Assembly: GCA_964485395.1 (NCBI GenBank)
Contig: CAZAJF010000006.1
Coordinates: forward strand, 41,195 to 105,194
Direction of reading: 5' to 3'
DNA from: an uncultured Treponemataceae bacterium
GTDB lineage: Bacteria > Spirochaetota > Spirochaetia > Treponematales > UBA12059
DNA length: 64,000 nt
Under the pieces are notes generated by a model, which worked only from the letters and a program-made list of their open reading frames with translations, searched no databases and had not been told where the DNA came from. Made by a program: the position numbers and the translations under genes. Shown piece after piece: positions 23,411 through 48,804 of the stretch (its first letter is position 1; each line of letters begins with the position of its first letter).

Positions 23411-23483
23411 CGCAGGGTAGAGCAGTTGGCAGCTCGTCGGGCTCATAACCCGGAGGCCGTAGGTTCGAGTCCTACCCCTGCTA
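23411..23483 (+). tRNA. tRNA-Met (CAT), initiator type
   Basis: Hand-folded cloverleaf: acceptor CGCAGGG/CCCTGC, D stem GAGC/GCTC, anticodon stem TCGGG/CCCGG with loop CTCATAA, T arm GTAGG-TTCGAGT-CCTAC. Three consecutive G:C pairs close the anticodon stem and the 1:72 pair is unpaired (C1xU72), both initiator hallmarks. CCA is not encoded. Confidence 0.85.
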
Positions 23484-23488
23484 GAAAT

Positions 23489-23524
23489 AAAGAACCGATC
23501 CGAAAGGGTCGGTTCTTTATTGTT
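23489..23524 (+). terminator. Rho-independent terminator after tRNA-Met
   Basis: AAAGAACCGATCC-GAAA-GGGTCGGTTCTTT followed by ATTGTT. Confidence 0.7.
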
Positions 23525-23720
23525 ATAATACTAAAAAAATCCTAGAAACCTGGAATCAGTCCTTCTACAAAAAATCAAATACATAAGTAATTATCCAGTT
23601 TTTTCTAAATTCCTATTCGGTATTTTTTTAAGCTGGACTACATGTTTGCATGCACCGATACGGAGAAGCTCGTGAATTGAAAAGTGTTTTCAGGCTATGC
23701 CTGGATTTGATGTGATCATA

Positions 23721-23770
23721 CGCCGCATGTAATCACGCGCTGAACTTGGGCCTTCTATCGTGTGAAGGTA
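23721..23770 (-). pseudogene. Decayed tRNA-Val 3' fragment (att-like scar 1)
   Basis: TGAACTTGGGCCTTCTATCGTGTGAAGGT matches TGAACCAGTGACTTCTACCGTGTGAAGGT of the intact tRNA-Val. It is preceded by the hairpin CGCCGCATGTAATCACGCGC. Confidence 0.65.
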
Positions 23771-23879
23771 AGTATATACCCTATATTTAGTTATATTCAT
23801 TTTTCGGCTTTTTCCGACATCTTACCGTGTTAACAAATTATGGTAATCTTTTTTCCGTTGTTCTTATATTCAATTTTTT

Positions 23880-24475
23880 CTATTTTCTGATTTTTTCTTA
23901 CATTTGCTCTCATTCCACATCACAAAATCAGGTATAGTGGCCACCAATGTCAAGACAGCCTTAACCGCCAAATCCTTATAAACCACAATCGGACATTTTG
24001 TAGTGTAGTGTTCAATATGCATCACTTTCCTGCAATGCCGTGTAGTACCATGCCGATCTACTGATATTTAGCCGTTCGCATTGCTCGCAATTGGGAGTGT
24101 CATGGCTTGAGCGTAGATCATTCGTCGACGCTGCTGGAATTGGTAATACCTTATTATTTTTTAAGCCAGTCGATCTTTACCGTGTGAAGCACAATTGTCT
24201 GAATGAGTTCATCTCTATCTTATTCAACTGCCTTGTCATGATTTGGCGCAGCGGTTGCAAATATATCTGAGCCGGTTTTCAAAGGCTGCTTTTCCCATTT
24301 GCCTACAAAGTCGGGATGAGCCTTAAACTGTTCTATGATTTAAAAAATGGTCTTGTCGTCCTTTATAGCTACAAGCACAATCTTGAATTTCTGCTCTTTG
24401 TTCCAGTAACCTTTTTTTTCACTCATACGGCGCCACTTAGAGGGCAGCTGCCACTATAGTATACTGTCCAGTTCA
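23880..24475 (-). pseudogene. IS3-family transposase remnant (OrfA plus start of OrfB, multiple stops)
   Basis: The minus-strand translation reads MSEKKGYWNKEQKFKIVLVAIKDDKTIF*IIEQFKAHPDFVGKWEKQ...VKIDWLKK... then ...CEQCERLNISRSAWYY. This matches the IS3 OrfA HTH, leucine zipper and OrfB N-terminus. A TG-initiated putative terminal repeat (TGTGAACTGGACAG) lies at ~24475. Confidence 0.6.
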
Positions 24476-25014
24476 CAGGGTCCATTATATGGCGCTTGAA
24501 ATCATTTCCTTTTATCGAGGAGAAATCGGTAAAACAAAAATTGTTCAGCTTAGTCAGTATAAGACATAGATTAAAGGAATTGGCATTGTTTTTTGTTTTC
24601 GATTAAAACTGTCTTTCCAATTTCTACTTTCAAATCCGCTCTTGCCAATTCCTCATTTCTGTTTCATACTTTTCTTATCCCTTTCCAGAAAGGAAGCAGT
24701 AGAGCAGTAGAATCAACACCTCGTTCCAAGATAGCAATGAAGCTCGAAGCGTTGCAAGTCAAAGCCGTAAAACTCAATGCAGAGCGTCTTGAACTTACGA
24801 AATTTGTACAAGTAAAAGAGAGGAAAGCCTCGGTTCCTGCAATGAAGGTTGAAGTCAAGAAACGGTTTTGTCATAGCACCAAAAAACTAGGTTAAGTGCT
24901 CAGATACATCTCTATAGTCATTTGCTGTAGAGGCGGTTTAGGTATCAAATGGATAACTATACTTATAAAAAGAGCGTTCAAGTAATCACAGCGTAATTTC
25001 AAAGGAGATTAAAC

Positions 25015-26277
25015 ATGAATTCATTGAAATTTGAGACCTACTTCATGATGGAGCAGTATGTAAAAGAAAAGGTTGGCTTTTCCCCAAGTGCTGGTAAACC
25101 ATTATTGGTTGCTAAAGAGTTTCTAAAGCAATACAAAGACTATCTTGCCTGGAAAAAGTTTCCGCCCTTAACCGAGGCTGAAATTTCGGTTGCACATAAT
25201 CCCCGCTATGTGCATGGAATATTAGATTGTTCGATTGCAAACGGATTCAGCAACACTCTTGAATCGGTCGCAAAATCGTTACCATACACTACTGGCAGTT
25301 TCTATTATGCATCGTTATCTGCTCTAAAAAACAATTCAGTGACCATCTCGCTTACCTCTGGTTTTCATCATGCCTGTTATAATAATAGTGGTGGCTTCTG
25401 TACCTTCAATGCGCTCATGATCGCGTCAATTCTGCTTAAAAACAAAGGATTGCTTAAGAAAGAAGGTGTTGGAATCATTGATTTCGACATGCACTATGGC
25501 AATGGAACCGATGACATCATAAAGGAACTAAAAATCAGCTATGTTAAGCATCTTGGCACTGCAGATATAACGATCAAAGATGATGCTATTGATGAACCCG
25601 ATCTGTTAAAAAAACTTGAACCACTTAAGAAATGTGACATTTTATTTTATCAAGCAGGTGCGGATATTCATATTGACGATCCACTTGGCGGGAAACTGAC
25701 AACCGAGCAAATGAAACAGAGAGATAGGCTTATATTCCAATTTGCCAAAGATAATCAACTGCCTTTAGTGTGGAACCTTGCTGGCGGTTATCAAAAGCCT
25801 ATTGAAATTGTGATACAGCTACATGTGAACACTCTGAAAGAGTGTATAAATGTTTTTGAAGAGGGTCTCAGTAGGAATGGGACAATATCCTTAATTCAAG
25901 CTTCCAAGGTAAAAAAACAATTAGAACAATCATTCCCGCTAATAATCAGACTATTTCCCCCAAACATAATCTATATTGAGCCAACAGGATTTCTAGCGAC
26001 TGAAAATTTAGAAGTCCTTGATGATAAACTTATGCGAATAGATAATATCGAAAACTCAAATATTATTTTCAGCTTCAAAAATTTAAAATCTACGAGATCA
26101 AGTACAACTTGGGGATATCTATTTGACCTTACTAAGAACTTAGAGAAACGAAAAAAGAAGTTAATTCTTTGTGATATATTCCCATACCAATTAGAAGTAA
26201 TAAAAATGTTTGGATTTGAGTCAAAATTTGAAATTCATAATACTTGCAAAGAAGCAATAGAGGCAATAAATGGGTAG
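25015..26277 (+). CDS. Zn-dependent deacetylase (HDAC11-like layout) fused to a C-terminal STAS domain
   Basis: 420 aa, with AAGGAG upstream. The catalytic motifs are SGFHHA..GGFCTFN, IIDFDMHYGNGT, YQAGADIHIDDPLGG and LAGGYQK. The C-terminal ~120 aa has a STAS pattern (PTGFL..ENLEVLDDKL...KKLILCDIFPYQLEVIKMFGFESKFEIHNTCKEAIEAI). Confidence 0.8.
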   Translation: MNSLKFETYFMMEQYVKEKVGFSPSAGKPLLVAKEFLKQYKDYLAWKKFPPLTEAEISVAHNPRYVHGILDCSIANGFSNTLESVAKSLPYTTGSFYYASLSALKNNSVTISLTSGFHHACYNNSGGFCTFNALMIASILLKNKGLLKKEGVGIIDFDMHYGNGTDDIIKELKISYVKHLGTADITIKDDAIDEPDLLKKLEPLKKCDILFYQAGADIHIDDPLGGKLTTEQMKQRDRLIFQFAKDNQLPLVWNLAGGYQKPIEIVIQLHVNTLKECINVFEEGLSRNGTISLIQASKVKKQLEQSFPLIIRLFPPNIIYIEPTGFLATENLEVLDDKLMRIDNIENSNIIFSFKNLKSTRSSTTWGYLFDLTKNLEKRKKKLILCDIFPYQLEVIKMFGFESKFEIHNTCKEAIEAING

Positions 26278-26512
26278 TTTAAATCATGTCAATTTAAAGG
26301 AATTACCACATACCGCTTTGGTAGAAATCGAGTACAGTGATCCAGTATTTACTGACAAAAAATTATTGAAGCTCATTGAAACAGATTCCATGGGTTCAAC
26401 TTATGAATCTAATAACGGAGACAAGTCACATCCGGGCTGGCTCTGTCCTGTTTTCTTTTGGAATTTTCAAAAATCTCCAGAACTACTTGATGCAAGAATG
26501 GCAAAAGTATAA
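26270..26512 (+). CDS. Small protein of the WLCPV(F/L)F motif family (short paralogue)
   Basis: 80 aa ending in GSTYESNNGDKSHPGWLCPVFFWNFQKSPELL. It overlaps the upstream gene by 8 nt and the downstream gene by 1 nt (TAATG). Confidence 0.65.
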   Translation: MGSLNHVNLKELPHTALVEIEYSDPVFTDKKLLKLIETDSMGSTYESNNGDKSHPGWLCPVFFWNFQKSPELLDARMAKV

Positions 26513-27318
26513 TGAAAATATTATTCTCAAGTGACTTACATGGCGAAATAGATGCATATAAGAAATTTTCCAAACTTCTAAAATCGTATGACTGTGGTGT
26601 TTTAGCTGGGGACTTGATGGATGAAATGATCTCGCTAAGAGATGCGGAAAGCTATGGGTTAATAAATCCAGAAGAGCCGGAAGAATTACTTGGGGCAGAG
26701 GAAAATGACTTAGATGTATTCACTAAGCGATATCATGACTCATTGCACGACGTAAACTCCGTAAATAGAAAAGGGTTGGAAATAAAGAAAAATATAATAA
26801 TTGATATTTTAAATCACTCAAAAAAACCCATATTTTATATAACTGGAAATCACGATATTGCGAATTGGATAGATCAAGGGAATTTATTAAATATTGAGTT
26901 AAAAAAAGTAATATTTATGAATACATCCTTTGTTGGATACAGCCCTACTAACCTTAGATCACCTGAATCAGAACAACGATCCTTTCTTGCAAATCTTATT
27001 CCATTAGTGGATAAAAATACAATATTGGTTTCCCATTCACCTCCATATGGGATTTTAGATACAAATATGTCAAACGAGAACATCGGCAGCAGAGCACTAA
27101 GGGATTTTATTAAACAAACCAATCCAATGATAAATTTATTTGGCCATGTGCATGAAAGATTCGGACGCACCGGGAACTTTATTAACGGCAGTTGGTTTTT
27201 AAGCAAAAAATTCGTCTCAATCAATACAACTACAAGTAGGATAAGATATATAAATGCAAATAATATATTTTTCAACAATAACATTACTAATAAAAATGCC
27301 ACAAAGAAAAGATCATGA
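26512..27318 (+). CDS. Calcineurin-like metallophosphoesterase
   Basis: Motifs SDLHG, AGDL, ITGNHD, SHSPP and FGHVHE. It is a close paralogue of 43509..44279. Confidence 0.85.
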   Translation: MKILFSSDLHGEIDAYKKFSKLLKSYDCGVLAGDLMDEMISLRDAESYGLINPEEPEELLGAEENDLDVFTKRYHDSLHDVNSVNRKGLEIKKNIIIDILNHSKKPIFYITGNHDIANWIDQGNLLNIELKKVIFMNTSFVGYSPTNLRSPESEQRSFLANLIPLVDKNTILVSHSPPYGILDTNMSNENIGSRALRDFIKQTNPMINLFGHVHERFGRTGNFINGSWFLSKKFVSINTTTSRIRYINANNIFFNNNITNKNATKKRS

Positions 27319-27527
27319 TAATTTGTAAAAATCGACAAAACCACATGCCCCTCCGGGAAATTAACCAGTCATCTTTCCAAGACATAGTATCAAATATATA
27401 TAGGCATTGCAGCGATACTATTACAAAGGAAGCATTATACGAAACCTTAAAAGATAAAGTCAAAATTGATCTAATAATATGGAGGTCAAACATTTATGAA
27501 ACAAAACAAAGCTTTCTATTTCCATGA
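27315..27527 (+). CDS. Hypothetical small protein
   Basis: 70-aa ORF with an ATGA overlap to the upstream stop. It overlaps the next gene by 32 nt, and no motif was recognised. It may be spurious. Confidence 0.3.
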   Translation: MIICKNRQNHMPLREINQSSFQDIVSNIYRHCSDTITKEALYETLKDKVKIDLIIWRSNIYETKQSFLFP

Positions 27528-28500
27528 AGAAGTATTCAGTTTATCGATACCAGAAGAAAAAATTGAGTTTATTGGTCGATCTCTTCCGCATTTTCGAAAC
27601 ATTGCCCATCAGCTCTCAAAAAACTATACCATGCATAATCTTAGTCTTAGACGTGAAAATATTTCCGAATATCTAAGAGTACACAGTAAAGATTATCTTG
27701 ATTCTATACTTATGAAGCAAGCTGGTGAGAATGTATCACTAAAAATAAACTGCGAATGTTCAGGTCTGGAATACGCCATTCCCGGATTTGAATATACCCT
27801 CGGTGGTTTATATCAAGCCATAGATTTTGTCAAACAAGATTACAACAGCAGAGTATTTTGTTCAACACTACCCGGACACCATTCATATGCAGATCATGGA
27901 CATGGGTACTGTTTATTAAACCCAATGTCCGTCGCTGTTAGAAAAGCACAACAGGAGGGTTTTAAGAATATCCTAATCATTGATTGGGATTTACATCATG
28001 GCGATGGAACGCAAAGTATTTTTGCCTATGATAATTCTGTATATCAGATTAGTATCCATAGTGCCATAGACTTGTATATGAGCATGATGCGAATCTGGGA
28101 GCAAGGAACCACAGAGTTTGCACAAAGCATCGGGCATTGCAATATTCCTGTTCTTGATGCTTTGTATGATGAAAAGTTTATTAAAGAAGTTGAGTTCAAG
28201 GGGGAGTATTATAGAGCAGATAGTTGCAAGGAGCAATTTTCCAAAAAACTTAATAATTTGCCATTTAAGCCAGAATTGATTTTTATTTTCTCAGGCTTTG
28301 ATTCACATATTGATGATTGTGGTAAAAATATCACCGACTGGACTGATTTTGATTATGAATTGCTGACAAAGGCTGTTGTAGATATCGCTAAAAAGCATAA
28401 CTGTCCTATAATTTCGACCACAGGCGGAGGATATAATGTCGCATCAAGCCTAAGTGCCGCAAAGCACCATATTAATACCTTAATGAACTATAAGGCGTAA
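27496..28500 (+). CDS. Histone-deacetylase-family Zn-dependent deacetylase (class II / acetylpolyamine amidohydrolase-like)
   Basis: Motifs PGHHSYADHGHGYCLLN, IIDWDLHHGDGTQ, GFDSHIDD and TGGGYN. GGAGG lies upstream. Confidence 0.85.
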   Translation: MKQNKAFYFHEEVFSLSIPEEKIEFIGRSLPHFRNIAHQLSKNYTMHNLSLRRENISEYLRVHSKDYLDSILMKQAGENVSLKINCECSGLEYAIPGFEYTLGGLYQAIDFVKQDYNSRVFCSTLPGHHSYADHGHGYCLLNPMSVAVRKAQQEGFKNILIIDWDLHHGDGTQSIFAYDNSVYQISIHSAIDLYMSMMRIWEQGTTEFAQSIGHCNIPVLDALYDEKFIKEVEFKGEYYRADSCKEQFSKKLNNLPFKPELIFIFSGFDSHIDDCGKNITDWTDFDYELLTKAVVDIAKKHNCPIISTTGGGYNVASSLSAAKHHINTLMNYKA

Positions 28501-28596
28501 TGGCGTTATTTAAGCTTATTAGAATGATTTATTGCGAACACTAAACAAACAACGACAGTAAATTAGTTTTGAACAAATATCTATAAGGGAGATGTC

Positions 28597-29670
28597 ATGG
28601 ATAGAATAAGTGGGTGTATTTTTGGAGGTGCTGTAGGTGATGCTTTAGGCGCACCTCTTGAATTTTATAAAAAATATGACATCTCCACACTTTTCGGCAT
28701 TGATAAAGTAATTAAGAATATATTAGTAAAGCACCCTCAATTAGAAATTACCGATGATACTCAGATGTCGTTATATACCATGGAAGGCTTAAATAGAGAT
28801 TATTCTATTAAAAATATGCTGCATTCCTACCATAGATGGCTAGTAACCCAAAAGCACATTTTTAATCAGACTGAGAATTCAATCTATAACAATCTATCAA
28901 CAGAGGAAATAGCTAAGATAATATCAAATAGTAGTTTGATTAAATCTAAAAAACTATACAAAATTCGTTCTCCCGGAAACACCTGTTTAGAGGCACTATC
29001 GACTGGCAGGATTCAAACAGTTGAATTGATATTAAATGATAGTAAAGGTTGCGGGGGTGTGATGCGAGTTGCACCAGTCGGTTTCTTTTTTAATGATGCA
29101 AATTCGGTATACATAAACGCTTGCGATATTGCTTTATTAACACATGGACATCCTTCTGGATATATACCCGCTGGTATTTTAGCAACTATTATTTATTATA
29201 TTAATAACAATGAATCTTTGGTGGGGAGCATCACAAAAGCTATGGATATAGCCTACACGCACAATGGAGATGAAACCAAAGAATCTTTTTATTGCATTAC
29301 TAGTGCGATAAAACTAGCACTTAAGGGTAAAGTTAATTCAAGGGAAACTGAAGATTCCATTAGATCGGTATATTCAGAAAACAATGCAAAGTATTATACT
29401 CCAAAATCAAGAGGAATTGGATGGATTGCTCCTGAAGCCTTAGCATACGCGATATATTGTTCGTTAATTTATAATGGCGATTTTTTAAACTCTATCGAAA
29501 CTGCAATCAATCATTCAGGAGACAGCGATAGTATTGGTGCTATATGTGGAAATATATTAGGGGCATACTTGGGACGAGAGAATATTAATTGTGAACATAT
29601 AATAAATGTCATTGATGAAAAGGACATTATAGAATCCTCAATCAAACTATTTAAGCAAGAATTAAAATAA
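28597..29670 (+). CDS. ADP-ribosylglycohydrolase (ARH/DraG family)
   Basis: Motifs GGAVGDALGAPLEF, ITDDTQMSLYT, GNTCLEAL and HSGDSDSIGAICGNILGAYLG. Confidence 0.85.
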   Translation: MDRISGCIFGGAVGDALGAPLEFYKKYDISTLFGIDKVIKNILVKHPQLEITDDTQMSLYTMEGLNRDYSIKNMLHSYHRWLVTQKHIFNQTENSIYNNLSTEEIAKIISNSSLIKSKKLYKIRSPGNTCLEALSTGRIQTVELILNDSKGCGGVMRVAPVGFFFNDANSVYINACDIALLTHGHPSGYIPAGILATIIYYINNNESLVGSITKAMDIAYTHNGDETKESFYCITSAIKLALKGKVNSRETEDSIRSVYSENNAKYYTPKSRGIGWIAPEALAYAIYCSLIYNGDFLNSIETAINHSGDSDSIGAICGNILGAYLGRENINCEHIINVIDEKDIIESSIKLFKQELK

Positions 29671-29784
29671 TCCCGTATAATATGATTGGCAACTGGAAAT
29701 GTTTGATTGATATCAGTTTTATTTATAATTTTCTACTGGAAGATTTATAATCGAATGGTTTGATATAATTCACAGGAGATTAAA

Positions 29785-29871
29785 ATGACTAAATCCTTTA
29801 GACTCGTAAAAATCAAGAATACCAGGGGGCAATCTACAAGTAAATTAACTCTATCTGAAAGCATTGAATAG
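29785..29871 (+). pseudogene. Truncated duplicate of the 5' end of the gene at 30756
   Basis: MTKSFRLVKIKN... compares with MAKSFKLVKIKK.... The first ~45 nt are about 80% identical, then the sequences diverge and a stop follows. Confidence 0.4.
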
Positions 29872-29933
29872 AGAAATAGGTGTAGAAGGACCAAAAGGGA
29901 GAACATCCTAACCAATTCGGAGGTGGAAGACTA

Positions 29934-30302
29934 ATGAATATTTTCATAAAGACCAAACTTGATTTGTATGCATTCGCAAAACGATTGGCGAAGCATATGG
30001 GCGAAAAAACAGAATTGGCTACTTTATATCGGGAAGATTATTTTACGCTTATAGACAGCAGGATTGAAATATCTCCTTCGGATGATGATAGGGTTGCAGA
30101 TTACACACAAGAACTATCAAATTTCGATAATGCCACCCCTGGATATATTTTCAAATTAATGACATATTTAATAGATAAGTATGACTCCTTTGTGATTCCG
30201 GGGATACGCACCAGTGGTTTAATGTTAAATTATAATAAATCTAATTTCCCCAAAAGTCCAACAGAAATGTTGGAACTGATTTCACCATTATTAAAAAAGT
30301 GA
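29934..30302 (+). CDS. Hypothetical protein
   Basis: 122 aa with GGAGGTGG upstream. No motif recognised. Confidence 0.5.
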   Translation: MNIFIKTKLDLYAFAKRLAKHMGEKTELATLYREDYFTLIDSRIEISPSDDDRVADYTQELSNFDNATPGYIFKLMTYLIDKYDSFVIPGIRTSGLMLNYNKSNFPKSPTEMLELISPLLKK

Positions 30303-30398
30303 AATCAAGAGATCTTGAAGAAAGTTTATTCGATAAAACAAAAGATGATTTAGGGTGATTTAGTTAATTCTCTTTTTACATGTCATTGGAGGATTTGT

Positions 30399-30740
30399 AT
30401 GGAGCATAGATTTTATAGAAGAGAAAATGACGGCTTAGTATTATTTATACTCAAAAAATATGCAGGTGAGGAAACGGGTTCAGGAAAACCTGGAAGATAT
30501 AGCATGGAAATACATGCTGATGAACGCCATAAATGAGAAGAAATTACTGATGCTTGTTTTAGTAAGGGAAATGGCAAGGTATTTATTATTTCTGTTCGCA
30601 GCAGAAGACAATCACCAGAATTTCATAGTTTAACAGAAATAACTCCTGACCCATGGAGGATTGAACATGTAAAAATATATTTCTTCTCCCCCTTCAATCT
30701 TATCGACATTGAACGCAACACTGAAGCTGTAAGTTTATAA
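30399..30740 (+). pseudogene. Hypothetical gene interrupted by an in-frame TGA (30534..30536)
   Basis: Good SD (GGAGG) and ATG at 30399. The frame stays open for 113 codons apart from a single TGA. Confidence 0.45.
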
Positions 30741-30755
30741 TAGGAGCTTGAGACC

Positions 30756-31130
30756 ATGGCTAAATCCTTCAAACTTGTTAAAATCAAGAAAATCATGTGG
30801 GCAACTTACAAGGAAATTAACACTACCCCATGGTATAAAGATCGAAACCAAGATTTTTTCATGATTTCATTTTTTGACATTCTCAACTCCTTTTATCCAG
30901 AAAATGCCCATGTTGTTAATTTAACTATATCAGATGAAGCCATATCCGATTACGATTTGAAGTTAACAAAGTCTACAGGCAATATATATGTCGACGAAGA
31001 TAATAAATCACATACCATGAGTGAAAGAGAATTAATGAAGTTTTTGGGAACAGTTCCACCTGTTATGTACATTGCCGTTCAATTAGATTCAAGAGGCAAG
31101 AAATTAACCGAAAAAATAATAGAGAAATAA
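30756..31130 (+). CDS. Hypothetical protein
   Basis: 124 aa with AGGAG upstream. The stop is 2 nt before the next ATG. Confidence 0.5.
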   Translation: MAKSFKLVKIKKIMWATYKEINTTPWYKDRNQDFFMISFFDILNSFYPENAHVVNLTISDEAISDYDLKLTKSTGNIYVDEDNKSHTMSERELMKFLGTVPPVMYIAVQLDSRGKKLTEKIIEK

Positions 31131-31132
31131 AA

Positions 31133-31723
31133 ATGATTACAAAGGCAATCTTTATAGGTGATGTTCACGGTGAGTTTCAAAGACTAGAACAAATCATCTG
31201 TTTCAATAAAAATAATCTTCCAATGTTTTGTACAGGAGACATTCCAATATCTGCCATCAATGGTGAGGCAGATGACAGTATAGAAAAATGCATAAAACTC
31301 TTAAAAGAAAACAGTGTCGCTACAGTAAAAGGCAACCATGATAGTTGGCTAAATAAAGATTTCGACTTTATATCAAAGCTTCCATTAACACTTGATATAG
31401 CTACATCGGCAGGAAAAGCACTTTTCTGTCATGGCATTGGCAACAATTACATGAGTAAAATCAATCCCGATGACTATGGTTATGCGATTGAGTCTAATGA
31501 CGATTTACATAATATCATTAAAAGCAAAGACTACAAGTTCATCATAAATGGACATTCGCATAAAAAAATGATTAAAAAAGTTAGCAATATTGTAATAATA
31601 AATGCAGGATCGTTAAAACATGATCCCGGCTTTATTATTGCTGATTTTTTATACAAATCTGTAACGTTTTTAAAATTTTCTGATTTGGAAATATCCATCG
31701 AGAAATCAGAAAGTTTAGAATGA
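31133..31723 (+). CDS. Small metallophosphoesterase (YfcE/MJ0936-like)
   Basis: Motifs GDVHG, TGDI, KGNHDSW, CHG and NGHSHKK. Confidence 0.8.
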   Translation: MITKAIFIGDVHGEFQRLEQIICFNKNNLPMFCTGDIPISAINGEADDSIEKCIKLLKENSVATVKGNHDSWLNKDFDFISKLPLTLDIATSAGKALFCHGIGNNYMSKINPDDYGYAIESNDDLHNIIKSKDYKFIINGHSHKKMIKKVSNIVIINAGSLKHDPGFIIADFLYKSVTFLKFSDLEISIEKSESLE

Positions 31724-31859
31724 AGAAGAATAGGTATCGTTACGAATTAAAGATGAAATTATTGTGGTAGAAAAAATTATTGATTTCTTAAAATTGCATG
31801 ATTGCTTTAAGTAGTGTAATAACTGAACTAAGGGATCAATATTTGACAGGAGGTTGAAT

Positions 31860-37177: not shown

Positions 37178-37739
37178 CTAAGAACCCTTCTCTTCCCACC
37201 TCTTAATTATTAAATAAAAGGTAAGTCTTTTAAGCTTTAACTCTTGTGCTACATCCGTGGGGTTGAGAGTTCAATCTTCCATTGATTATAAACCATCCCC
37301 CAATTTTTTGGAAACTCTTTTGTGGGACTTCCAAGCTTTTTAACCTTTGTTTTTGCAAATTCTATGTCTTCTTTTGCCAGGAGCGGATGTTTTGCCGTTC
37401 CAATTCGGCGAAAGCTCCGAAGAGAGTAATGCTAAACCGTCCTTGAGCTGAGGTTGTATCGATGTTTTCTATATGAGAAATATAGCCGACTTTTTTTGAT
37501 TTATGCTATCGATGATTGATAGCCAGTCTCTCGTATAGCTCACAATGCAACTAATATCGGAAACCACGACCGTATCGCTTTCGCGTGCGTAGTCGAGAAG
37601 CTTCTTGAGCTCAGGTGGGTTTGCGTTGTTTCCACTGAGTTTGTCTACAAAGAGGCGATCTACGCCAAGCCCCTTCGTTGCGTCATCTTGGCGATCTGTG
37701 GACAGAGTTGAAGTCGAGACCCGTGTATACCTTATTCAT
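37178..37739 (-). pseudogene. Serine recombinase (resolvase/invertase family) pseudogene
   Basis: Fragments across three frames read MNKVYTRVST, DRLFVDKLSG...PELKKLLDYARESDTVVV and IENIDTTSAQGRFSITLFGAFAELERQNI, followed by an HTH-like tail (LKLKRLTFY.IIKRWEEKG). There are several frameshifts and stops. GC is visibly higher than in the neighbours. Confidence 0.75.
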
Positions 37740-39794: not shown

Positions 39795-39932
39795 ATTTAC
39801 AAACGTTTCAAGACTATGAACCTATGTTATGATTATTTGCTCGCTTAATTAAGAGCAAAATACATTAAGGAAGGATGAGGCAAGTCAGGCAGATATTATG
39901 ACAACTGATATTTTAAGGAAGGAAAACAGATC

Positions 39933-40783: not shown

Positions 40784-40892
40784 TTAAGTATTTTTTGAAA
40801 CTTAGGCGATACAGCTTCTTACTTGGACATTTAGGACACTAGGGTTGCTTAAAAGTTAATCGATATAGATGATTTACGATGAAGGAGTAATT

Positions 40893-41585
40893 ATGAATAC
40901 TAGAATTGGATTGATTGCTATGTCGCTGTTCATTCTCGGCAGCACTCTAATTACGCAAGAGAGCCTGAGCGATCAGGTGACAACCTACTACTTTCAGACA
41001 GTGAATCTTTCAAGAGATGGTAATATCAGAATTGAGGTTACCCCAGAGAGTCAGCAAAAAAGGGACGGGAAGGTAGTTGTCGGCGTCCGATTTGATATAG
41101 TTAAAGACAACGTGCTTGATCCAGTATTCACCGTCGGAACAGTGGGTTCTGGCGAGAATATGGATACGGCATTTCGAACCGCCCTAGCTGAATGGATGTT
41201 CTTTTTCGGGGACCCATTTAAGAACTACACCAACAAAATTGATGCCAAGCAATTCAATGACTACGACCTATTTTTCTCAGGAAAGAAAGCACAAGGAGAG
41301 CAGTCAGACCGGCTATCTACCTTCATAATCCCTGACGAACAGTGGAATGCACAACTTACCCGCCTGATTCAAGACGATCAATTATTCAAAAAAGGAGCTG
41401 TTAATACTTCAATGATTCTTGTCATTGTTCAGAACGGAAAATTCGTCGGGGAATGTAGAATCAATGGAGTAGTAAGCACAAGTTTCTTAAACAGTATTGA
41501 GAAAAGTGGATTGTTCATTACCCTCGATTCAATTACTAGCCTTCTCGTTAAACAATATATAATTATTGCACCTAGGCGAAATTAA
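40893..41585 (+). CDS. Hypothetical secreted protein
   Basis: AAGGAG lies before the ATG at 40893. The signal peptide is MNTRIGLIAMSLFILGSTLI. Confidence 0.5.
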   Translation: MNTRIGLIAMSLFILGSTLITQESLSDQVTTYYFQTVNLSRDGNIRIEVTPESQQKRDGKVVVGVRFDIVKDNVLDPVFTVGTVGSGENMDTAFRTALAEWMFFFGDPFKNYTNKIDAKQFNDYDLFFSGKKAQGEQSDRLSTFIIPDEQWNAQLTRLIQDDQLFKKGAVNTSMILVIVQNGKFVGECRINGVVSTSFLNSIEKSGLFITLDSITSLLVKQYIIIAPRRN

Positions 41586-41864
41586 GTTTTGGCTTCGTTT
41601 ACTGTGTGTTTTAAGAATTCTGATCTTCTGGTGTCTGTAGAAAAGGAGGAAACTACATTAAAAATTCGGCTCCGACAAGGACTATAAAAAATAGTTTCGA
41701 AACTAATCAGATGGTGCATTAAAGCACCAATATTCTGTCAAAAGGATGTTTTTCAATTCTGTTCAATCTCATAGATTATCCAGAAAATCTGTAGTAGACT
41801 AGTTTGAAAAATTAAAATTACCTTGAATAACTGATTATTCAATATACTATAGGGAGAACCTTAA

Positions 41865-42296
41865 ATGAATATGGTAAACTACAAGATTCTAAGAATCAGA
41901 ATGCGTATTCGAAGGGCATTATCTTCTATAATCCCTTTCCTTGCAAAGACGACAAAAATATTCAAGAAACCAATAGTGAAAGCATATAAGGATTCTGAAG
42001 GTTGGTTTATTTCTGATTCAAATGGATTTTCCAAAGCTCAAAACCAACTTATTGGAGGAGTTCCCGAGCTTATCGAACACTTTGTTGGCGCTTCGACTAA
42101 GATAATGATTAAATATAGCTCAGTAAAATTTCAAGATGCCATTACCTGTGATCTGATTGAAACCAGACCAAGTGGTTCAACGTATCGATATCACGAGGGC
42201 AATGTTGACTATAAATTTTGGCTTTGCCCTGTCTTCTTTTGGTATTTCAAGAATCCTCCGAAAACTCTATTTGTGTTAATAGTTGACGACTGCTAG
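41865..42296 (+). CDS. WLCPV(F/L)F motif family protein
   Basis: 143 aa with EGWFISDSNGF...GGVPELIEHFV...GSTYRYHEGNVDYKFWLCPVFFWYFKNPPKTLFV. Confidence 0.65.
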   Translation: MNMVNYKILRIRMRIRRALSSIIPFLAKTTKIFKKPIVKAYKDSEGWFISDSNGFSKAQNQLIGGVPELIEHFVGASTKIMIKYSSVKFQDAITCDLIETRPSGSTYRYHEGNVDYKFWLCPVFFWYFKNPPKTLFVLIVDDC

Positions 42297-42471
42297 CTCC
42301 ATGCAAAAGTACTTAAATGATTTTATCGCAATGTTCGCTTTTTGATTTGGCAGGGCACGACTATTATCGCAGTTCCCCATTACAAGATAGCATCATTGGA
42401 CTTATCTTGGAGAAGCATAGTAATGCATCTCGCAGTGACTATGACTTAAATCTTTATGGAGGTTTTGCAAA

Positions 42472-42849
42472 ATGACTGAAAATAAATACAGTTTAAAATG
42501 CATTACCACTGCTTATAAACTGATCAATCATCCAGAAATTGCCTTGTTAAAGATAGTAGGTTCATTAGACTTATTTTCTAAAGGAAACTGGTTTAGCAGA
42601 ATCGAAAAACTAAGCAAAGTTGGCTATAAAAAAATTATACTCGATTGCAATGAAACTTTTGTTTACGATCATATTGATCCATTTTTCACTAACCTTAAAT
42701 TTCCTAAAGATAGCAATCTTTGTTTTGTTATTTATGCCAAAAAAGAATCGACAATAGTCAAGAATTACTATGATGGGATTCTTGGTGGAATGTTAAATTT
42801 CGTACTTGGATCAATGCAAGAGTGCATAGGTTACTTAAATAAATACTAA
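42472..42849 (+). CDS. STAS-like single-domain protein (tentative)
   Basis: 125 aa. LLKIVGSLDLFS...GYKKIILDCNETFVYDHID...LCFVIY...SMQECIGYL follows the SpoIIAA/STAS pattern only loosely. Confidence 0.4.
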   Translation: MTENKYSLKCITTAYKLINHPEIALLKIVGSLDLFSKGNWFSRIEKLSKVGYKKIILDCNETFVYDHIDPFFTNLKFPKDSNLCFVIYAKKESTIVKNYYDGILGGMLNFVLGSMQECIGYLNKY

Positions 42850-42986
42850 TGTGAAGAAGTAAATACGAACCTTAACAAATCAGGTTTGCGCTAATGATAA
42901 GCCGACCCTGCTGAGAATATTTTAGGTTTATAAAAAGTGGTTGAATACAAACCAATATTTTTTGACTTCTTGAGAGGAGAATAGAT

Positions 42987-43316
42987 ATGAAAGCACGACA
43001 AACTCTAATAGCAGTATTATTAGGGGTTATTACAGGTTATATAATTTGTTTCGCAGTATTTCTTGGATTTTTATTCCTAAATACTATCACTGCTGTTGAC
43101 CTCAATACATTGGTTTGGACATTTTATTTATTACTTATTTTGATATTGATCCCTATTGTTATTCTGTTTATTAAGAATGCGAGAAGTAAAAAAACAACAT
43201 TTGCGAATGTTTATTGGCTGTCTTCTATTGCTTTTTCATTAATTGCTGGGATTACCGGGATTACATTACCAATAGTTGATTTATTTTTAATAGTTGCGAT
43301 AAACAAAATATTATGA
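42987..43316 (+). CDS. Small integral membrane protein (3 predicted TM segments)
   Basis: 109 aa with three long hydrophobic stretches. GAGGAG lies upstream. Confidence 0.55.
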   Translation: MKARQTLIAVLLGVITGYIICFAVFLGFLFLNTITAVDLNTLVWTFYLLLILILIPIVILFIKNARSKKTTFANVYWLSSIAFSLIAGITGITLPIVDLFLIVAINKIL

Positions 43317-43508
43317 AAATGGTTAAGCCGAATTCGAGATTACATGCTTTTATAAAATACAATTCAAGGAAGATTCAGCCAGATTCGCTCTTTGCCATGA
43401 ATTATTATTGCATTGACCATAACACAAAAACCTATCACATTTGCTTTTATAGATTTAGTGAATATTAGGTTGACGCTACATATATAGTGGGATTATTATA
43501 GAGGGCAA

Positions 43509-44279
43509 ATGAAAATCTTATTCACAACCGACATCCATGGTGATATGGAGACATATCAAGCCTTCTCAGAAAAATTGAAGGACTTCGACATTGGTATCAT
43601 TGCTGGTGACTTGATGGAAGAATTCCTGTCACCTAATGATGCTATCGCATTTGGCTTGAAAGACAAAGAACTAATCGAAGAATTGCATGGCGAGGAATTT
43701 GACGAAGTTGTTGAAATGGATAAAGCCATAAAAAATGCACTCCATAACAAGAATTCAACAAATAGAAAAGGATTGGAAATTAAGAGAAAAAAAATAATAG
43801 AGACTCTCGAAATCGCACAGCGACCAATATACTACATTCGCGGTAACCATGATATTGCCGATTGGGGTGATACAAAATATATAAAAAATATTGAAAACAA
43901 GAAAATAGATTTAGGAACAATAAGTCTATTTGGTTTGAAAGAAGATTTTAGATTGGCAGTAAGCCAATTTAGGTATTCAAGTAAAATAGCAAATTGCATT
44001 GATAAGGGTACAATTTTAGTTTGTCATTCTCCACCATATAAAATAATGGATATTACGAAAATGGTGCGAAGGAGGGATCATAAAGTAGTCCTTACACATG
44101 TTGGAAGTAAAAATATTCTTAAAATAGTAAACAAAAAGCATCCCCTGTTTTGCCTTTGCGGTCATGTACACCAAGGAATAGGTATTAACGGTAACATCAT
44201 TAATGGGGGATGTTACAGGCATAAGAAATTTGCAAGCATCGATACAGAAAAAAGCAAAGCAGAATTTATCAACTGGTAA
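43509..44279 (+). CDS. Calcineurin-like metallophosphoesterase
   Basis: Motifs TDIHG, AGDL, RGNHD, CHSPP and CGHVHQ. It shares the insert ...NSTNRKGLEIKRKKII... with 26512..27318. Confidence 0.85.
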   Translation: MKILFTTDIHGDMETYQAFSEKLKDFDIGIIAGDLMEEFLSPNDAIAFGLKDKELIEELHGEEFDEVVEMDKAIKNALHNKNSTNRKGLEIKRKKIIETLEIAQRPIYYIRGNHDIADWGDTKYIKNIENKKIDLGTISLFGLKEDFRLAVSQFRYSSKIANCIDKGTILVCHSPPYKIMDITKMVRRRDHKVVLTHVGSKNILKIVNKKHPLFCLCGHVHQGIGINGNIINGGCYRHKKFASIDTEKSKAEFINW

Positions 44280-44599
44280 GGCTTTAAGATTGTCCTAAGA
44301 TTGGCATTAACTGAAAATAGTTATGTTACGATTATTTACTTTTGTTTTCTTAATTCATACTAAAGCAGCTTTGATGTTAAAATTATATATGGCAGGCTTG
44401 ATCAATCAATGGTAATATAAAAACAAAAAATGTTTTAGTATTACCCAAGAATGGTGCTTTTACAGATTCTGTTTTTTCTTAGTTGTGTAGATCAGCAAAA
44501 TTCATATCCAAAACAATAATGGGTGATACACTATCAGTTTGAATAGTCATTTATGAATTGATTGAATTAGTGTTGGATTGAACTATATATGAGGTGCAT

Positions 44600-45340
44600 A
44601 TGTCCATATTTGCTATTGGTGATATTCATGGATGTTTTGACTTATTAGATAAAGGGTTTGAAGTAATCAAAAACCGCGCATCTCTAAATGATAAAATAGT
44701 CCTCCTAGGGGACATAATTGATTCTGGCAGTGATACAAAAAAGTGTATCGATCTAATACTTGAAATGAGTCAAAAATATGAAGTAATCGCAGTCAAGGGA
44801 AATCATGAAGAATGGATGCTACAAACAAAAGATGATTATACCAGTCACTCATGGATAATTAGTATGGATGGATTAAAAACCATTAAAAGCTATTCTGAAA
44901 GTGTAGAAGAAGAATTGAAAAGTGAATTAAAAGCAAATGGAATTGCAATAGTAAATGATCACGTACCAATATCGTATGATAAATTTTTCAAGGTGTTACC
45001 AAAAGCACATTTGGATTTCATAGAAAACATGAGAGACTATTACATTGAAGGAAACTACATATTCGTTCACGCAGGGATATCAACAGAATATAAAGATCTT
45101 GACAAAATGGATAGGCACAACATGAGATGGGGATTTGAAGGATTTCCGGAAAAATACCACGGAAATAAAATAGTTGTATATGGTCACTGGAGCAATAAAG
45201 CAGTAATAAACGGCAACCAAGTGATTACATATCAATCCAATAACACTATCTGTATAGACACCCAAAAACATAACGTGCTTACAATATTTATAGCTCCAGA
45301 AAATAAAATAGTGCAAATTACGCCTAAAAAGCAAATCTAA
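44600..45340 (+). CDS. PPP-family Ser/Thr phosphatase-like metallophosphoesterase
   Basis: Motifs GDIHG, GDIIDSG (Arg of DRG replaced), GNHE, VHAG and YGHW. ATG at 44600 follows GAGG. Confidence 0.8.
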   Translation: MSIFAIGDIHGCFDLLDKGFEVIKNRASLNDKIVLLGDIIDSGSDTKKCIDLILEMSQKYEVIAVKGNHEEWMLQTKDDYTSHSWIISMDGLKTIKSYSESVEEELKSELKANGIAIVNDHVPISYDKFFKVLPKAHLDFIENMRDYYIEGNYIFVHAGISTEYKDLDKMDRHNMRWGFEGFPEKYHGNKIVVYGHWSNKAVINGNQVITYQSNNTICIDTQKHNVLTIFIAPENKIVQITPKKQI

Positions 45341-45448
45341 TAAGTTTTAAATCTGTTATTTTAAAGCCATCCCAGTTTAGCAAACATAAGATTGACGCCT
45401 CAACTAAAAGCGAATATAATCTTATTTCAGAGAAAACCAGGAGCATAT

Positions 45449-45922
45449 ATGCAATATCGAGTTCATATTAAAAGGTTTGGCAATGGATTTTGGTCATTTC
45501 ATACCCCGAGATTTGCATATCCTCAACTTCCAGAACGATCAATATTTGACAATGCGCTCGTTGCAGGAATAGATGACATGTTGTTGGAATATGAAAAGAA
45601 ATATGGAAAATTTGATGTGATTTTCAGTGACACCAAGATTGATTGTGAAAATATCGATTTTATGAAATTGACGTGGGTTCGCGGGGATCGGTATGATTCT
45701 CAAAAAGGTGGCAATTGGTATGCTAATTCCGAAAATAAAATCGGATGGCTTTGCCCTGTTTTATTTGATTATTTTAACCCCTGCCCTGAAAATATTTTCA
45801 TATTTTTAGTAAAATACCAGCAAACCAAAGATAGCAGGCTTACAATAAAACAACTCTTCGAAGAATTGAAAACCAAGTTACTTAAGAATAGCGTTGGATT
45901 TTTAGAATCTGTGGAAGAGTAA
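45449..45922 (+). CDS. WLCPV(F/L)F motif family protein
   Basis: Contains GGNWYANSENKIGWLCPVLFDYFNPCPENIFIF. ATG at 45449 follows CCAGGAG. Confidence 0.65.
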   Translation: MQYRVHIKRFGNGFWSFHTPRFAYPQLPERSIFDNALVAGIDDMLLEYEKKYGKFDVIFSDTKIDCENIDFMKLTWVRGDRYDSQKGGNWYANSENKIGWLCPVLFDYFNPCPENIFIFLVKYQQTKDSRLTIKQLFEELKTKLLKNSVGFLESVEE

Positions 45923-46029
45923 AAGTTAATAATACTATTTGAACCTGAGATTAAATATGGGAAAATTTGTCTGAAGGCATTGAATTATAGGCCATGTTCG
46001 AGGAAATACTTTTAAATTATGGAGATTAG

Positions 46030-46767
46030 ATGAATCCCTCTTATCCAAGCATTAAACAAGCGCTATTTTTACTATTTTGCATAGTGACAATACAGACAAT
46101 AATTGGTGTATTTATAACGGGTTTACTTCAAGCTCTCAATCATGAAATAAATAATTCCGCTTTAGCCGGCTTTGCTGATACGATTACACTAGGGTTGATT
46201 ATTTTTAATGCTCAAAAATACTATGAATACAGCTTTAGCAAACTATATTCATTTAAGCTATTTAACCCTTTATATTTAATTCCTATAATTCTTGTTACTT
46301 GTGGGTTTTCTATATTACTATCCGAGTTAAATAATGTCATACAATTTTTCGTTCCTATTCCACCTATGTGGAGAGAGATATTTACTTCAGTTGGCAGCAC
46401 TAAATCTGGAATGATACCTTCTATCCTGACTCTTTCTATTATTGCTCCACTAACTGAAGAGTTATTATTTCAAGGATTATTTCTGAAAAGCTTTCTAACT
46501 AAAATGACAAAATCGAATGCTATTGTATTATCTTCGCTTTTATTTGCAATTCTTCATTTAAATCTCTGGCAATTTGCAGGAGCATTTTTAATGGGAATAT
46601 TATTGGCAAATATGTATATTGAGTTCAAATCCCTTTTGCCATGCTTGATCGTACATAGTATATATAATTTTCTACCAACATTATCCAGAGATATTCTTAG
46701 TATTAACATTTCTGGATACTCTTCACATACTCAATCATCACAATTTCAAACAATTCGTTTGACTTAA
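46030..46767 (+). CDS. CPBP-family intramembrane glutamic protease (CAAX protease / Abi)
   Basis: Multi-TM protein with motifs APLTEELLFQG, FAILH and HSIYNF. Confidence 0.8.
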   Translation: MNPSYPSIKQALFLLFCIVTIQTIIGVFITGLLQALNHEINNSALAGFADTITLGLIIFNAQKYYEYSFSKLYSFKLFNPLYLIPIILVTCGFSILLSELNNVIQFFVPIPPMWREIFTSVGSTKSGMIPSILTLSIIAPLTEELLFQGLFLKSFLTKMTKSNAIVLSSLLFAILHLNLWQFAGAFLMGILLANMYIEFKSLLPCLIVHSIYNFLPTLSRDILSINISGYSSHTQSSQFQTIRLT

Positions 46768-46848
46768 TTGAGGTGATATTGATCTTAGCATCTGTTCTTT
46801 CCTATATATTTTTTGAGAAGTTAACTGTAAAATTTAGGAGGACTTAAA

Positions 46849-47253
46849 TTGGCAGTTTCAGTTGAAGTAAAAATAGAAGAAGATAATATTCATTGTCTTT
46901 TAATAAGAATTAGCGGTGTATATAAATACGGATCAGAAGGAAATGAAGATGCTGGGTATTTAGGGAAAATGATTCAAATTGGCGAGATTATTGGAACTTG
47001 CAAAAAGAATGGGTTAAAAGGAATCATTGTTGATATGCAATCACTATCCTATTCTTGGGGTAATGGAATACATATCTTCCAATTTGAATTATTTCGAAAC
47101 ATAATTCCTATTGCATATGTTACTGGAGCGAAGTGCATCGAAGGCATAATGAGTCTGTCTAAATTATCAAATATCATGGGAAATATTGAGTCAGCTATCT
47201 TTCCATCCATGAAAGAAGCGGTTGAGTATATTAACAAAAGGAGTTTTTCATGA
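46849..47253 (+). CDS. STAS-like single-domain protein (tentative)
   Basis: TTG start 8 nt after AGGAGG. LLIRISGVY...LKGIIVDMQSLSYSWGNG...IAYVTGAKCIEGIMSL...SMKEAVEYI resembles STAS only loosely. Confidence 0.35.
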   Translation: MAVSVEVKIEEDNIHCLLIRISGVYKYGSEGNEDAGYLGKMIQIGEIIGTCKKNGLKGIIVDMQSLSYSWGNGIHIFQFELFRNIIPIAYVTGAKCIEGIMSLSKLSNIMGNIESAIFPSMKEAVEYINKRSFS

Positions 47254-47639
47254 TCCCAAACACAAAACTTCGAGCCGTATTTGACAAGACCAGCGGGCAT
47301 TGCCATTTCTGCGGCGATGGATTGGTTTTTGAAAAGTACGGTATAAAGGACATTAACGACCTTATGGGAGCATGGGAATCAGACCATGTAATCCAGCAAG
47401 GCAAGGGTGGTTCTAAAGATGACGAGAACTGTCTACCAACCTGTGTTCGATGCAACCGCCTTAGGTGGCATAGAGACGGAGACAATCTGCGGGAGTTATT
47501 ACTCCTTGGGCTTGTGGCATTCGATGAGGTTAAAAAGAAGACTACTACAGGGAAGAAGATTGAGGAACTAAAAACAAAGCGCCTTGAGGCTAATATCAAG
47601 AGGAGAAGAAGTTCGCCAAGTGAAGAGGCGGCAGAATAG
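47250..47639 (+). CDS. HNH endonuclease-domain protein
   Basis: Motifs GHCHFCG...WESDHVIQQGKGG...CVRCNRLRWH. It has an ATGA overlap with the upstream gene, and its GC is higher than the island average. Confidence 0.75.
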   Translation: MIPNTKLRAVFDKTSGHCHFCGDGLVFEKYGIKDINDLMGAWESDHVIQQGKGGSKDDENCLPTCVRCNRLRWHRDGDNLRELLLLGLVAFDEVKKKTTTGKKIEELKTKRLEANIKRRRSSPSEEAAE

Positions 47640-48523
47640 AATATTGCTACATTCGCTTCCCATGCAAGTGGATATCGCTTTTATAGTAGAACATGGTCTT
47701 AGGGTTGGTGCATCAGGAGCAATAACAATAAGGGCAGGGAGATACTCTGGAAACTCCAAAGGGAAAAAGATTATTTGAAAGGTTTCGGAAAAGGTCATGT
47801 AGGCGATAACTGAAGCGTAAATCGCTTCTAAAAAGCCCTATGCAGATTTTCCTCAGGATGCTGTTCGTAATTCGTTCCGATATGCTGTTGGAAAGCTATA
47901 TATGACTGGAAGTGTCAACACTGGATTTAAATTTCCGAAATTCATCGGTTTGCGAATTTCGCTTTTTCAGGCTTCTGCGAGGTCAACGATCCCGGTTTTC
48001 AAGCGATTTTTCATGCGATATGAATCACCTTTCAGATTTATATGACAACAAGAATACCTATAGATTGAAGGTCTTATTGAACCATGCGAACAATCAAGTC
48101 ACGGAGCTATACTTAAAAGGGCTTGCGGCTTATTAAGGGTAAGAGGAATGTGTCCGGGACGAGCCTTATTAAGATCGTCAAAGTTAATAGGGCACTAGCT
48201 CTTGATTCTAGTAGCTCTTGGGCAGAATTTTCAAAGAATATTACTATGAAATAGATATGCAAGTTCAAGATTTTGCTTAGGTGTTTTTCGATCCAAGTGA
48301 CAGAGAGCTATTTGCGCGGAATCGAGGAATATTGACAAAATGATATGTTTTTTGATTAAAGAAAAGGGCAGGTTGAGAACCCGCACCTGCTATGTAGCGC
48401 CACGCTATATGTATAAAAAGGCAGTGGTATAAAATGGAGCAACTAAAAATAACATAGCAGTTAAGTTCTTATAATACAACAAATAAATCGAAAGCCATAA
48501 GTGAGTCCTACCCTTGCAAGCAA

Positions 48524-48557
48524 TAAAAACCGATCCGAAAGGGTCGGTTTTTTATTG
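48524..48557 (+). terminator. Terminator hairpin copy inside the right repeat
   Basis: AAAAACCGATCC-GAAA-GGGTCGGTTTTTT followed by ATTGTT. The stem difference from the left copy keeps base pairing. Confidence 0.55.
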
Positions 48558-48756
48558 TTATAATACAAAAAAAATCCAAGAAACCTGGAATCAGTTCTTC
48601 TACTAAAAATCAAATACATAATTAATTATCCAGTTTTTTCTAAATTCCTACTCGGTTTTTTTTTACGTTGGACTACATGTTTGCATGCGCCGATACAGAG
48701 AAGCTCGTGAATTGAAAAGTGTTTTCTGGCTATGCCTGGATTTGATGTGATCATAG

Positions 48757-48804
48757 GCCGCGTGTATTCACGCGCTGAACTTGGGTCTTCTATCGTGTGA
48801 AGGT
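48757..48804 (-). pseudogene. Decayed tRNA-Val 3' fragment (att-like scar 2)
   Basis: The sequence is GGCCGCGTGTATTCACGCGCTGAACTTGGGTCTTCTATCGTGTGAAGGT. Confidence 0.65.

Follow-up and report, generated by a model that had tools for sequence, protein, structure and literature searches.

A circular DNA that carries a host-like segment can enter the chromosome by one crossover and then lies between two direct copies of that segment, as is the case for lambda gal/bio specialised transducing genomes and for plasmids with a cloned chromosomal fragment. In capture of the lambda gal/bio type, one end of the element is exchanged for the captured segment, and the integrase can be lost in this way. The cis-mobilisable elements (CIMEs) of the Streptococcus thermophilus ICESt1/ICESt3 group are integrase-less as well; they are flanked by att sites and take part in tandem accretion. 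Phage HP1 and the Streptomyces element SLP1 encode an integrase, and their attP sites share long, near-exact identity with the tRNA locus (~180 bp and ~110 bp, respectively). In Klebsiella, the repeats flanking islands at tRNA genes (tDNA islands) measure 15–221 bp, most commonly 20–25 bp (bioRxiv 10.1101/2020.11.02.365908). Here, we analyse a window of 64,000 nucleotides (nt) from an uncultured Treponemataceae bacterium of the order Treponematales (assembly GCA_964485395.1, contig CAZAJF010000006.1, positions 41,195 to 105,194 of the forward strand), in which a low-GC island of 24.7 kb is bracketed by a 303-nt direct repeat that begins inside the initiator tRNA gene (tRNA-fMet) and ends in a decayed tRNA-Val. 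All coordinates refer to this window. We consider the chances about evenly balanced that this repeat records a Campbell-type insertion, in which the island entered as a circle by a single crossover and carried a captured, ~7% diverged copy of the segment.

The intact initiator tRNA-Met gene (anticodon CAU) occupies positions 23411–23483 of the plus strand (ARAGORN; Rfam tRNA model, 62 bits). It was recognized as an initiator because its anticodon stem contains three consecutive G-C pairs and because the 1:72 pair of its acceptor stem is mismatched (C1xU72, followed by the discriminator A73), and it is the single initiator-type copy in the assembly. An intact tRNA-Val gene (anticodon CAC; 48934–49008, minus strand; ARAGORN; Rfam, 64 bits) converges with it. 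Both programs detected only these two tRNA genes in the window, and no other Rfam family matched within the repeat. The left repeat copy (23467–23769, plus strand, 303 nt) consists of the last 17 nt of tRNA-fMet, i.e. T-loop to 3' end, followed by the terminator hairpin, an AT-rich spacer of ~200 nt and the decayed 3' part of a tRNA-Val on the opposite strand. The right copy (48503–48804, plus strand, 302 nt) starts with a displaced 3' fragment of tRNA-fMet, GAGTCCTACCCTTGCAA (48503–48519), which is in direct orientation and equals the left copy at 15 of 17 positions; a possible decayed extension covers 11 nt further to the left (compare GCCATAAGT with GCCGTAGGTTC). A repeat finder, a whole-genome search and pairwise alignment agree on these limits, and the copies are 93% identical (E = 9e-127). 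They differ at 21 positions (20 substitutions and one 1-nt deletion), one fewer than the roughly 22 given in a preliminary description of this DNA, which had followed the repeat from the T-loop of tRNA-Met to a decayed tRNA-Val fragment, as found here. The differences are evenly spread and leave no identical core tract: the longest identical run measures 29 nt, and an apparent clustering near the tRNA end is not significant (4 differences in 47 nt vs 17 in 256 nt, p = 0.55).

Both edges of the repeat are classical tRNA att boundaries. The left edge is the G of GAGTCC in the T-loop of tRNA-fMet, and the right edge falls exactly at GAAGGT, the motif that marks the anticodon-stem boundary in the intact tRNA-Val and hence the edge of its decayed 3' fragment. 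The genome (4.3 Mb) contains only the two copies, plus a short match to the tRNA-Val scar at 48855–48902. Two other sources of the repeat were considered and rejected. A dispersed repeat or miniature inverted-repeat transposable element is ruled out, as there are two copies only in 4.3 Mb and none in relatives or public collections. A transposon that duplicated its target site is incompatible with a repeat of 303 nt and 7% divergence; in addition, there is no transposase domain, and a search for terminal inverted repeats at the island ends found none.

Today, the left copy provides the 3' end and the terminator of the sole initiator tRNA and generates the C1xU72 mismatch, whereas the right copy would generate C1xA72 and convert the G5-C68 pair to G5-U68. 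The preliminary description had noted both mismatches correctly and, taking C1xA72 as the canonical form, had concluded that the right copy is the original 3' end of the host. Indeed, C1-A72 proved almost universal in a survey of 234 bacterial genomes (PMC1635315), which explains this assumption. However, the conclusion does not hold for this lineage. The initiator end ...CCCCTGCTA, which specifies C1xU72, is present in 18 of 19 relatives from the family and in all 10 further genomes of the order that were inspected, including complete genomes of 1.1–4.1 Mb (28 of 29 in total; loci L005–L023 and L040–L049). At larger scale, the U72 pattern was found in 238 of 401 order genomes, representing 79 of 104 genera, and the A72 form in one of 42 family genomes, while the exact right-copy end GAGTCCTACCCTTGCA occurred in none of 400 order genomes. 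Judged by these genomes, the mismatch native to initiators of the order is C1xU72 rather than C1xA72, and the right-copy tRNA end is, by the same comparison, a derived, non-functional sequence that would weaken pair 5:68. In agreement, the first 62 nt of the left copy are closer than those of the right copy to each of the 19 relatives, and the right copy holds every derived state within the first 47 nt. Relatives without the island thus carry the left-copy sequence as far as tRNA end and trailer are concerned, contrary to what the preliminary description had expected, and no relative is informative for the spacer. The right head could still be a displaced host end that mutated later, because the intact tRNA, wherever it came from, has to look native. 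A descent of the right-copy end from a lineage with an A5:U68 pair was also considered and rejected: such tRNAs (in G044 and others, from another family) are followed by unrelated trailers and terminators and still have U72. A full-text literature search for 'C1-U72' together with 'initiator' retrieved no paper. In Treponematales, C1xA72 as the 'native form' is unusable for telling host ends from element ends, which corrects a textbook-based inference.

Each copy further contains a stable hairpin. The terminator of tRNA-fMet in the left copy (23486–23521, plus strand) folds into a 16-bp stem with a GAAA loop (−24.3 kcal/mol, z = −7.6). Its counterpart in the right copy (48519–48559, plus strand) contains one bulged U (−22.0 kcal/mol, z = −7.0) and was also detected by a terminator scan; both lie ~7 standard deviations below shuffled sequences in folding energy. 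The terminator core CCGATCCGAAAGGGTCGG is shared with the DNA 3' of tRNA-fMet in the genus (G001) and in the family. In the most parsimonious alignment, the right copy lacks a G of the 5' arm (23492) and has T for C in the 3' arm (23515). That is, what had been described as a pairing-preserving replacement of G:C by A:T is really a deletion combined with a C-to-T change, although the strong stem is kept as claimed. Relatives have both stem variants in their tRNA-fMet terminators (AGAACCGA/TCGGTTCT and AAAACCGA/TCGGTTTT), and a change of this kind is therefore tolerated by working terminators. The right hairpin is located downstream of the plus-strand genes of the island and can terminate them. 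The argument for divergence under constraint in the preliminary description draws on this one quasi-compensatory change, which a terminator role of the right hairpin at its present site would explain equally well.

The far end of the repeat is formed by the tRNA-Val scar. In the left copy (23709–23769, minus strand), the decayed tRNA-Val extends from the anticodon stem to the 3' end, and its T-loop carries a palindromic insert of 16 nt with two changes. The right-copy scar (48744–48804, minus strand) has a palindrome identical to that of the next scar, a second one beyond the 303-nt repeat (48841–48902, minus strand), which likewise bears the 16-nt insert in the T-loop. The same insert accompanies all three scars as well as the DNA beside tRNA-Val in G001, a genome of the same genus. 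Compared with the third scar, those of the left and right copies have derived changes in common and are therefore sister copies of a scar that was already old. The right-copy scar is contiguous with a spacer that is orthologous to one beside the tRNA-Val gene of G001, and an alignment of the right copy and the adjoining 24 nt with G001 gives 80.6% identity over 72 nt. In G001, half of the 16-nt palindrome is repeated four times (L024:18245-18700), and upstream of the tRNA-Val gene, tRNA-Val 5' halves recur in tandem every ~62 nt; our window has one such 5'-half copy at 49040–49067.

Whatever the model, the incoming DNA or the insertion event must supply a second copy of the whole segment from T-loop to scar. 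Because the family-type terminator and the genus-specific Val scar with its hairpin are present in both copies, this second copy appears to be of host-lineage origin rather than derived from the source of the low-GC cargo. The idea that incoming DNA brought a homologous spacer from a related locus is thereby supported in outline, and entry by homologous recombination, also raised in the preliminary description, is the route we prefer; the right copy as host original is the part that we do not retain. A circular form of the island would have carried the chromosomal segment that begins in the T-loop of tRNA-fMet and ends at the tRNA-Val scar edge, originating from the same locus of a close relative and hence ~7% diverged. 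This segment may have been captured by aberrant excision of an element residing at tRNA-fMet, in the manner of lambda gal/bio transducing phages. A single reciprocal crossover with the resident copy, most likely catalysed by host homologous recombination inside the repeat, would then have placed the island between two hybrid copies: the left copy would consist of a host part followed by an incoming part, and the right copy of an incoming part followed by a host part. From this position, the island could presumably leave only by rare recombination between the diverged copies.

Several features are in line with this scenario. Direct repeats of equal extent flanking foreign DNA are the expected product of a single crossover. 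Capture by aberrant excision would account for the T-loop edge, for the lost integrase end and for the right edge, which coincides with the scar boundary at which genomes G000 and G001 diverge; that is, the repeat ends where synteny between genomes breaks anyway. In addition, the two copies differ in which of them looks ancestral at either end. At the left end, it is the left copy that has the outgroup state at tRNA positions 68 and 72 and at trailer position +2. In the Val scar, it is the right copy, at three of three informative sites. This opposite polarity fits a crossover that would have taken place inside the repeat. We also count in favour of this reading that the right copy adjoins host-orthologous DNA, that the left edge is the base at which the repeats of three relatives begin, that an identical core tract is missing, that the island has no tyrosine integrase and only a broken resolvase, and that both junctions recur in independent k-mer assemblies.

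Comparison with the loci of relatives indicates how the site behaves in the family. Homology with the relatives ends just 3' of the terminator and none of them has the spacer. An exact 22-mer scan of genome and metagenome contigs yielded zero matches to it, and a sensitive blastn search of the own genome and of the loci in relatives returned only the two copies and the Val scars. Neither an empty site nor an island-free relative with this arrangement was found among the family relatives, which are non-syntenic downstream of tRNA-fMet: the genes 3' of tRNA-fMet change from genus to genus, G000 and G001 do not share them either, and in G001 the tRNA-fMet gene lies at a contig end and the tRNA-Val gene beside unrelated DNA. 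As the downstream genes vary, both tRNA genes are variable hot spots and leave no clean empty site for comparison. In G001, G006 and G035, the end of tRNA-fMet, starting at the same G of GAGTCC, is repeated together with the terminator 183–188 nt downstream (L025:1582-1860, L026:750-964 and L049:137-485). The 303-nt repeat thus starts at an edge at which recombination has recurred in the family. In G006, a terminator of the CCGATCC type adjoins the tRNA and the second copy is followed by a different terminator, so the DNA inserted there brought its own tRNA end and terminator.

Some further observations concern these loci of relatives. In G001, G006 and G035, an inverted copy of the tRNA T-loop and acceptor stem follows the terminator, forming arms of 17–33 nt around it; such an inverted copy is present in most family members and absent from our window. 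The tandem copies are separated by a GC-rich segment of ~110 nt (L026:824-940, and contigs of many relatives) that contains GCGCGCATGGATGCGCGC. This segment is a dispersed repeat with up to eight copies per genome in 25 of 41 relatives and without match in Rfam. The start of its copies is GGACTCGAACC, which is the T-loop of the tRNA in reverse complement; the genome studied here has only two weak copies.

The tandem units of relatives bear on two other explanations of the repeat. In one of them, two related elements accreted in tandem at tRNA-fMet, and the right copy is the left-arm stump of the older one, the rest of which was deleted, along with the original host fragment, by recombination between Val-scar copies, thereby bringing tRNA-Val beside the island. 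The relatives' units start at the same tRNA base, the G006 terminators suggest that a terminator can be element-borne, the spacer core has the GC content of the island, tRNA-fMet and tRNA-Val are non-adjacent in G001, and a search of the window for a third tRNA-Met fragment was negative, all of which suits this explanation. We nevertheless hold it to be rather improbable: both elements would need an internal genus-specific Val scar, so that capture of host DNA is required here as well; the left and right scars share derived changes up to the edge, implying that element and chromosomal copies were already near-identical; and more events are involved than in a single crossover. According to the other explanation, the duplication was made in place upon insertion, by staggered breaks or replication-coupled repair, and the initially identical copies have since diverged by 7%. 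The even distribution of differences without a conserved core would follow naturally, pseudogenes show that the island is old, and relatives have duplications of 27–154 nt at the same site around the small dispersed repeat. However, we know of no insertion mechanism that yields target duplications of 303 bp, and neither terminal inverted repeats nor a transposase are present. Moreover, copies that arose in place would not be expected to show derived states of opposite polarity at their two ends, and the second copy in G006, with its different terminator, indicates that inserted DNA brought its own copy there. Duplication in place is for these reasons a poor candidate, ranking below tandem accretion.

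The island itself (23770–48502) has 33% GC (range 30–36%) as compared to 54.9% for the genome and is the lowest-GC stretch of the whole assembly. Its cargo includes HDAC-like deacetylases, one of them fused to a STAS domain, a Sir2 protein, an ADP-ribosylglycohydrolase, seven metallophosphoesterases, a GGDEF fragment, three DUF6717 paralogues, an Rce1-like protease and an HNH protein. The relatives of the HDAC-STAS protein share at most 48% identity and come mostly from Betaproteobacteria; one partial HDAC match of 63% resides, without synteny, in a metagenome-assembled genome (MAG) of Treponematales. The stretch 24993–26525, comprising HDAC, DUF6717 and metallophosphoesterase genes, has a counterpart of 68–76% nucleotide identity on another contig of the own genome (C24:35279-36506). 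Given this counterpart and the HDAC match in the Treponematales MAG, some of the low-GC cargo is related to genes of the host lineage.

A tyrosine integrase is missing from the island: all seven PF00589 matches of the genome are on other contigs, tblastn with the genome's own integrases gave nothing real between 23401 and 49100, and Pfam scans of the island's open reading frames and of stop-to-stop frames in the gaps detected no integrase remnant. One weak tblastn match was discarded as spurious, since it lies inside a metallophosphoesterase gene. The sole trace of a recombinase or mobility gene in the island is a frameshifted serine recombinase (37365–37735, minus strand), whose resolvase N-terminal domain is distributed over two adjacent frames (PF00239, 3.6e-14 and 9.8e-06). 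Between the left repeat copy and the first island gene lies a stretch of 1.25 kb (23770–25014) with 38% GC, no open frame above 106 codons and no family match. This is where an integrase gene would normally sit, and the stretch could be captured donor DNA.

These data weigh on the most conventional explanation, which is also the one put forward in the preliminary description: a tyrosine integrase, since lost or provided in trans, inserted the island at the T-loop, and the whole left copy is island-derived while the whole right copy is the displaced, subsequently mutated host original. Such an attP arm would have carried 286 nt of homology downstream of the core. The left edge is the very T-loop base used in the repeats of three relatives, host-orthologous DNA directly adjoins the right copy, whose Val scar looks ancestral, and loss of an integrase is plausible in an island that has decayed. 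On the other hand, neither an integrase nor a remnant is left, not even in the non-coding stretch beside the tRNA, their usual place; the right head is derived throughout its first 47 nt and its tRNA end is absent from all 400 order genomes searched, which does not describe a pristine host end; and the island must still have captured 286 nt of host-like flank. In our view, this explanation is unlikely, albeit the foremost among the alternatives to the single crossover.

The single-crossover reading has weaknesses of its own, and the following points count against it. The polarity argument depends on about six sites, two of which are constrained by tRNA function, and the pattern would arise by chance with a probability of ~0.1; a similar pattern could also result if the neighbouring Val scars had undergone gene conversion. 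Since the spacer occurs in no relative, 14 of the 21 differences are without polarity. At 33% GC, the ~200-nt spacer resembles the island, which would fit a spacer that came from an element in both copies. In G001, no adjacency of tRNA-fMet and tRNA-Val is visible, and the ancestral one-copy locus is therefore assumed. Neither an empty site, an excised circle, a deletion joint nor a third allele was seen in the four low-depth sequencing runs that contain the locus. Finally, no close relatives of the island were found in genomes or metagenomes, and megablast of the whole island against plasmids and phages returned no match.

As the genome is metagenome-assembled, we also asked whether the junctions are real. 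The locus was found in four runs, all from one rock-metagenome study, whose contigs are of low depth and hence drop rare forms. Independently assembled Logan contigs from three runs span tRNA-fMet, the left copy and the beginning of the island (23427–24800) with zero differences; others span the end of the island, the right copy, the Val scars and tRNA-Val (47500–48975) with two differences. The depth at the junctions (3–6x) equals that of the flanks, and island and flank depths co-vary in three samples. An assembly artefact would mean that a low-GC segment from elsewhere, or from another organism, was joined to Treponematales flanks via shared tRNA sequences. Apart from the metagenomic origin of the genome, it could be argued for this that Logan contigs break within both tRNA bodies, where depth is very high and stems from multiple organisms, and that synteny in G001 gives no support for adjacency of the two tRNA genes. 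However, single contigs connect the island with a family-type terminator at its left junction and with genus-specific Val scars at its right one, the depths co-vary, and the assembly has one initiator tRNA only. We therefore consider an artefact very improbable, more so than any other explanation discussed here.

If the single-crossover reading is taken one step further, the locus may represent an integrase-independent 'landing-pad' element: the captured segment would have been excised precisely between old attachment scars at the tRNA-fMet T-loop and the tRNA-Val anticodon stem, and host RecA would drive entry and exit at the same locus in related Treponematales. We put this forward tentatively, as it appears less probable than the crossover as such. 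If true, the T-loop of tRNA-fMet would be a family-wide hot spot at which duplications of tRNA end and terminator, 27–303 nt in length, accompany inserted DNA. As to the immediate surroundings, a promoter-like site of the initiator tRNA gene is located at 23369–23397 on the plus strand (TTGACA-17-TAGATT; 10 of 12 matches in a consensus scan), a TTGACA block also precedes the tRNA in relatives, and a response-regulator gene lies further upstream (22961–23326).

The locus shows an island that lacks a recombinase of its own at a tRNA hot spot and is still bracketed by long repeats, a warning for programs that look for short exact repeats and an integrase when calling island boundaries. Its biological weight is modest, given that the structure fits known recombination logic and comes from one low-coverage metagenome genome. 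When compared with described systems, it resembles tDNA islands of the Islander type (PMC4383910) in that foreign DNA directly follows an intact tRNA gene and a direct copy of the tRNA 3' end is present at the far end; moreover, the fragment edge in the T-loop and the Val-scar edge at the anticodon stem are classical sublocations. It differs from them by the missing tyrosine integrase, a gene that islands of this class contain by definition, and by a repeat of 303 nt and 93% identity, including terminator, spacer and the scar of a second tRNA, in place of a short near-exact core. The repeat is indeed longer than typical att cores, as the preliminary description had remarked, yet it belongs to the same continuum as the Klebsiella repeats of up to 221 bp. 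With HP1 and SLP1, the locus shares an element-borne copy that restores the tRNA 3' end and downstream sequence, in this case the terminator; however, there is no integrase, and the block is longer, 7% diverged and extends beyond what restoration of the tRNA needs. The CIMEs have in common with it the att-like direct repeats, the lack of an own recombination module and a hot spot with stacking, as seen in the tandem units of relatives, but no helper with a matching integrase was identified here, and the repeats are far longer and include non-att DNA. Lambda gal/bio genomes and Campbell-type insertion, finally, likewise leave inserted DNA between two direct copies of one chromosomal segment. 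In contrast to these, neither a circular form, a donor nor phage genes are seen at this locus, and the segment is short and ends at the edges of old tRNA scars. Taken together, the repeat is an unusually long, composite version of the ordinary repeats left by island insertion, and no new mechanism is required to explain it.

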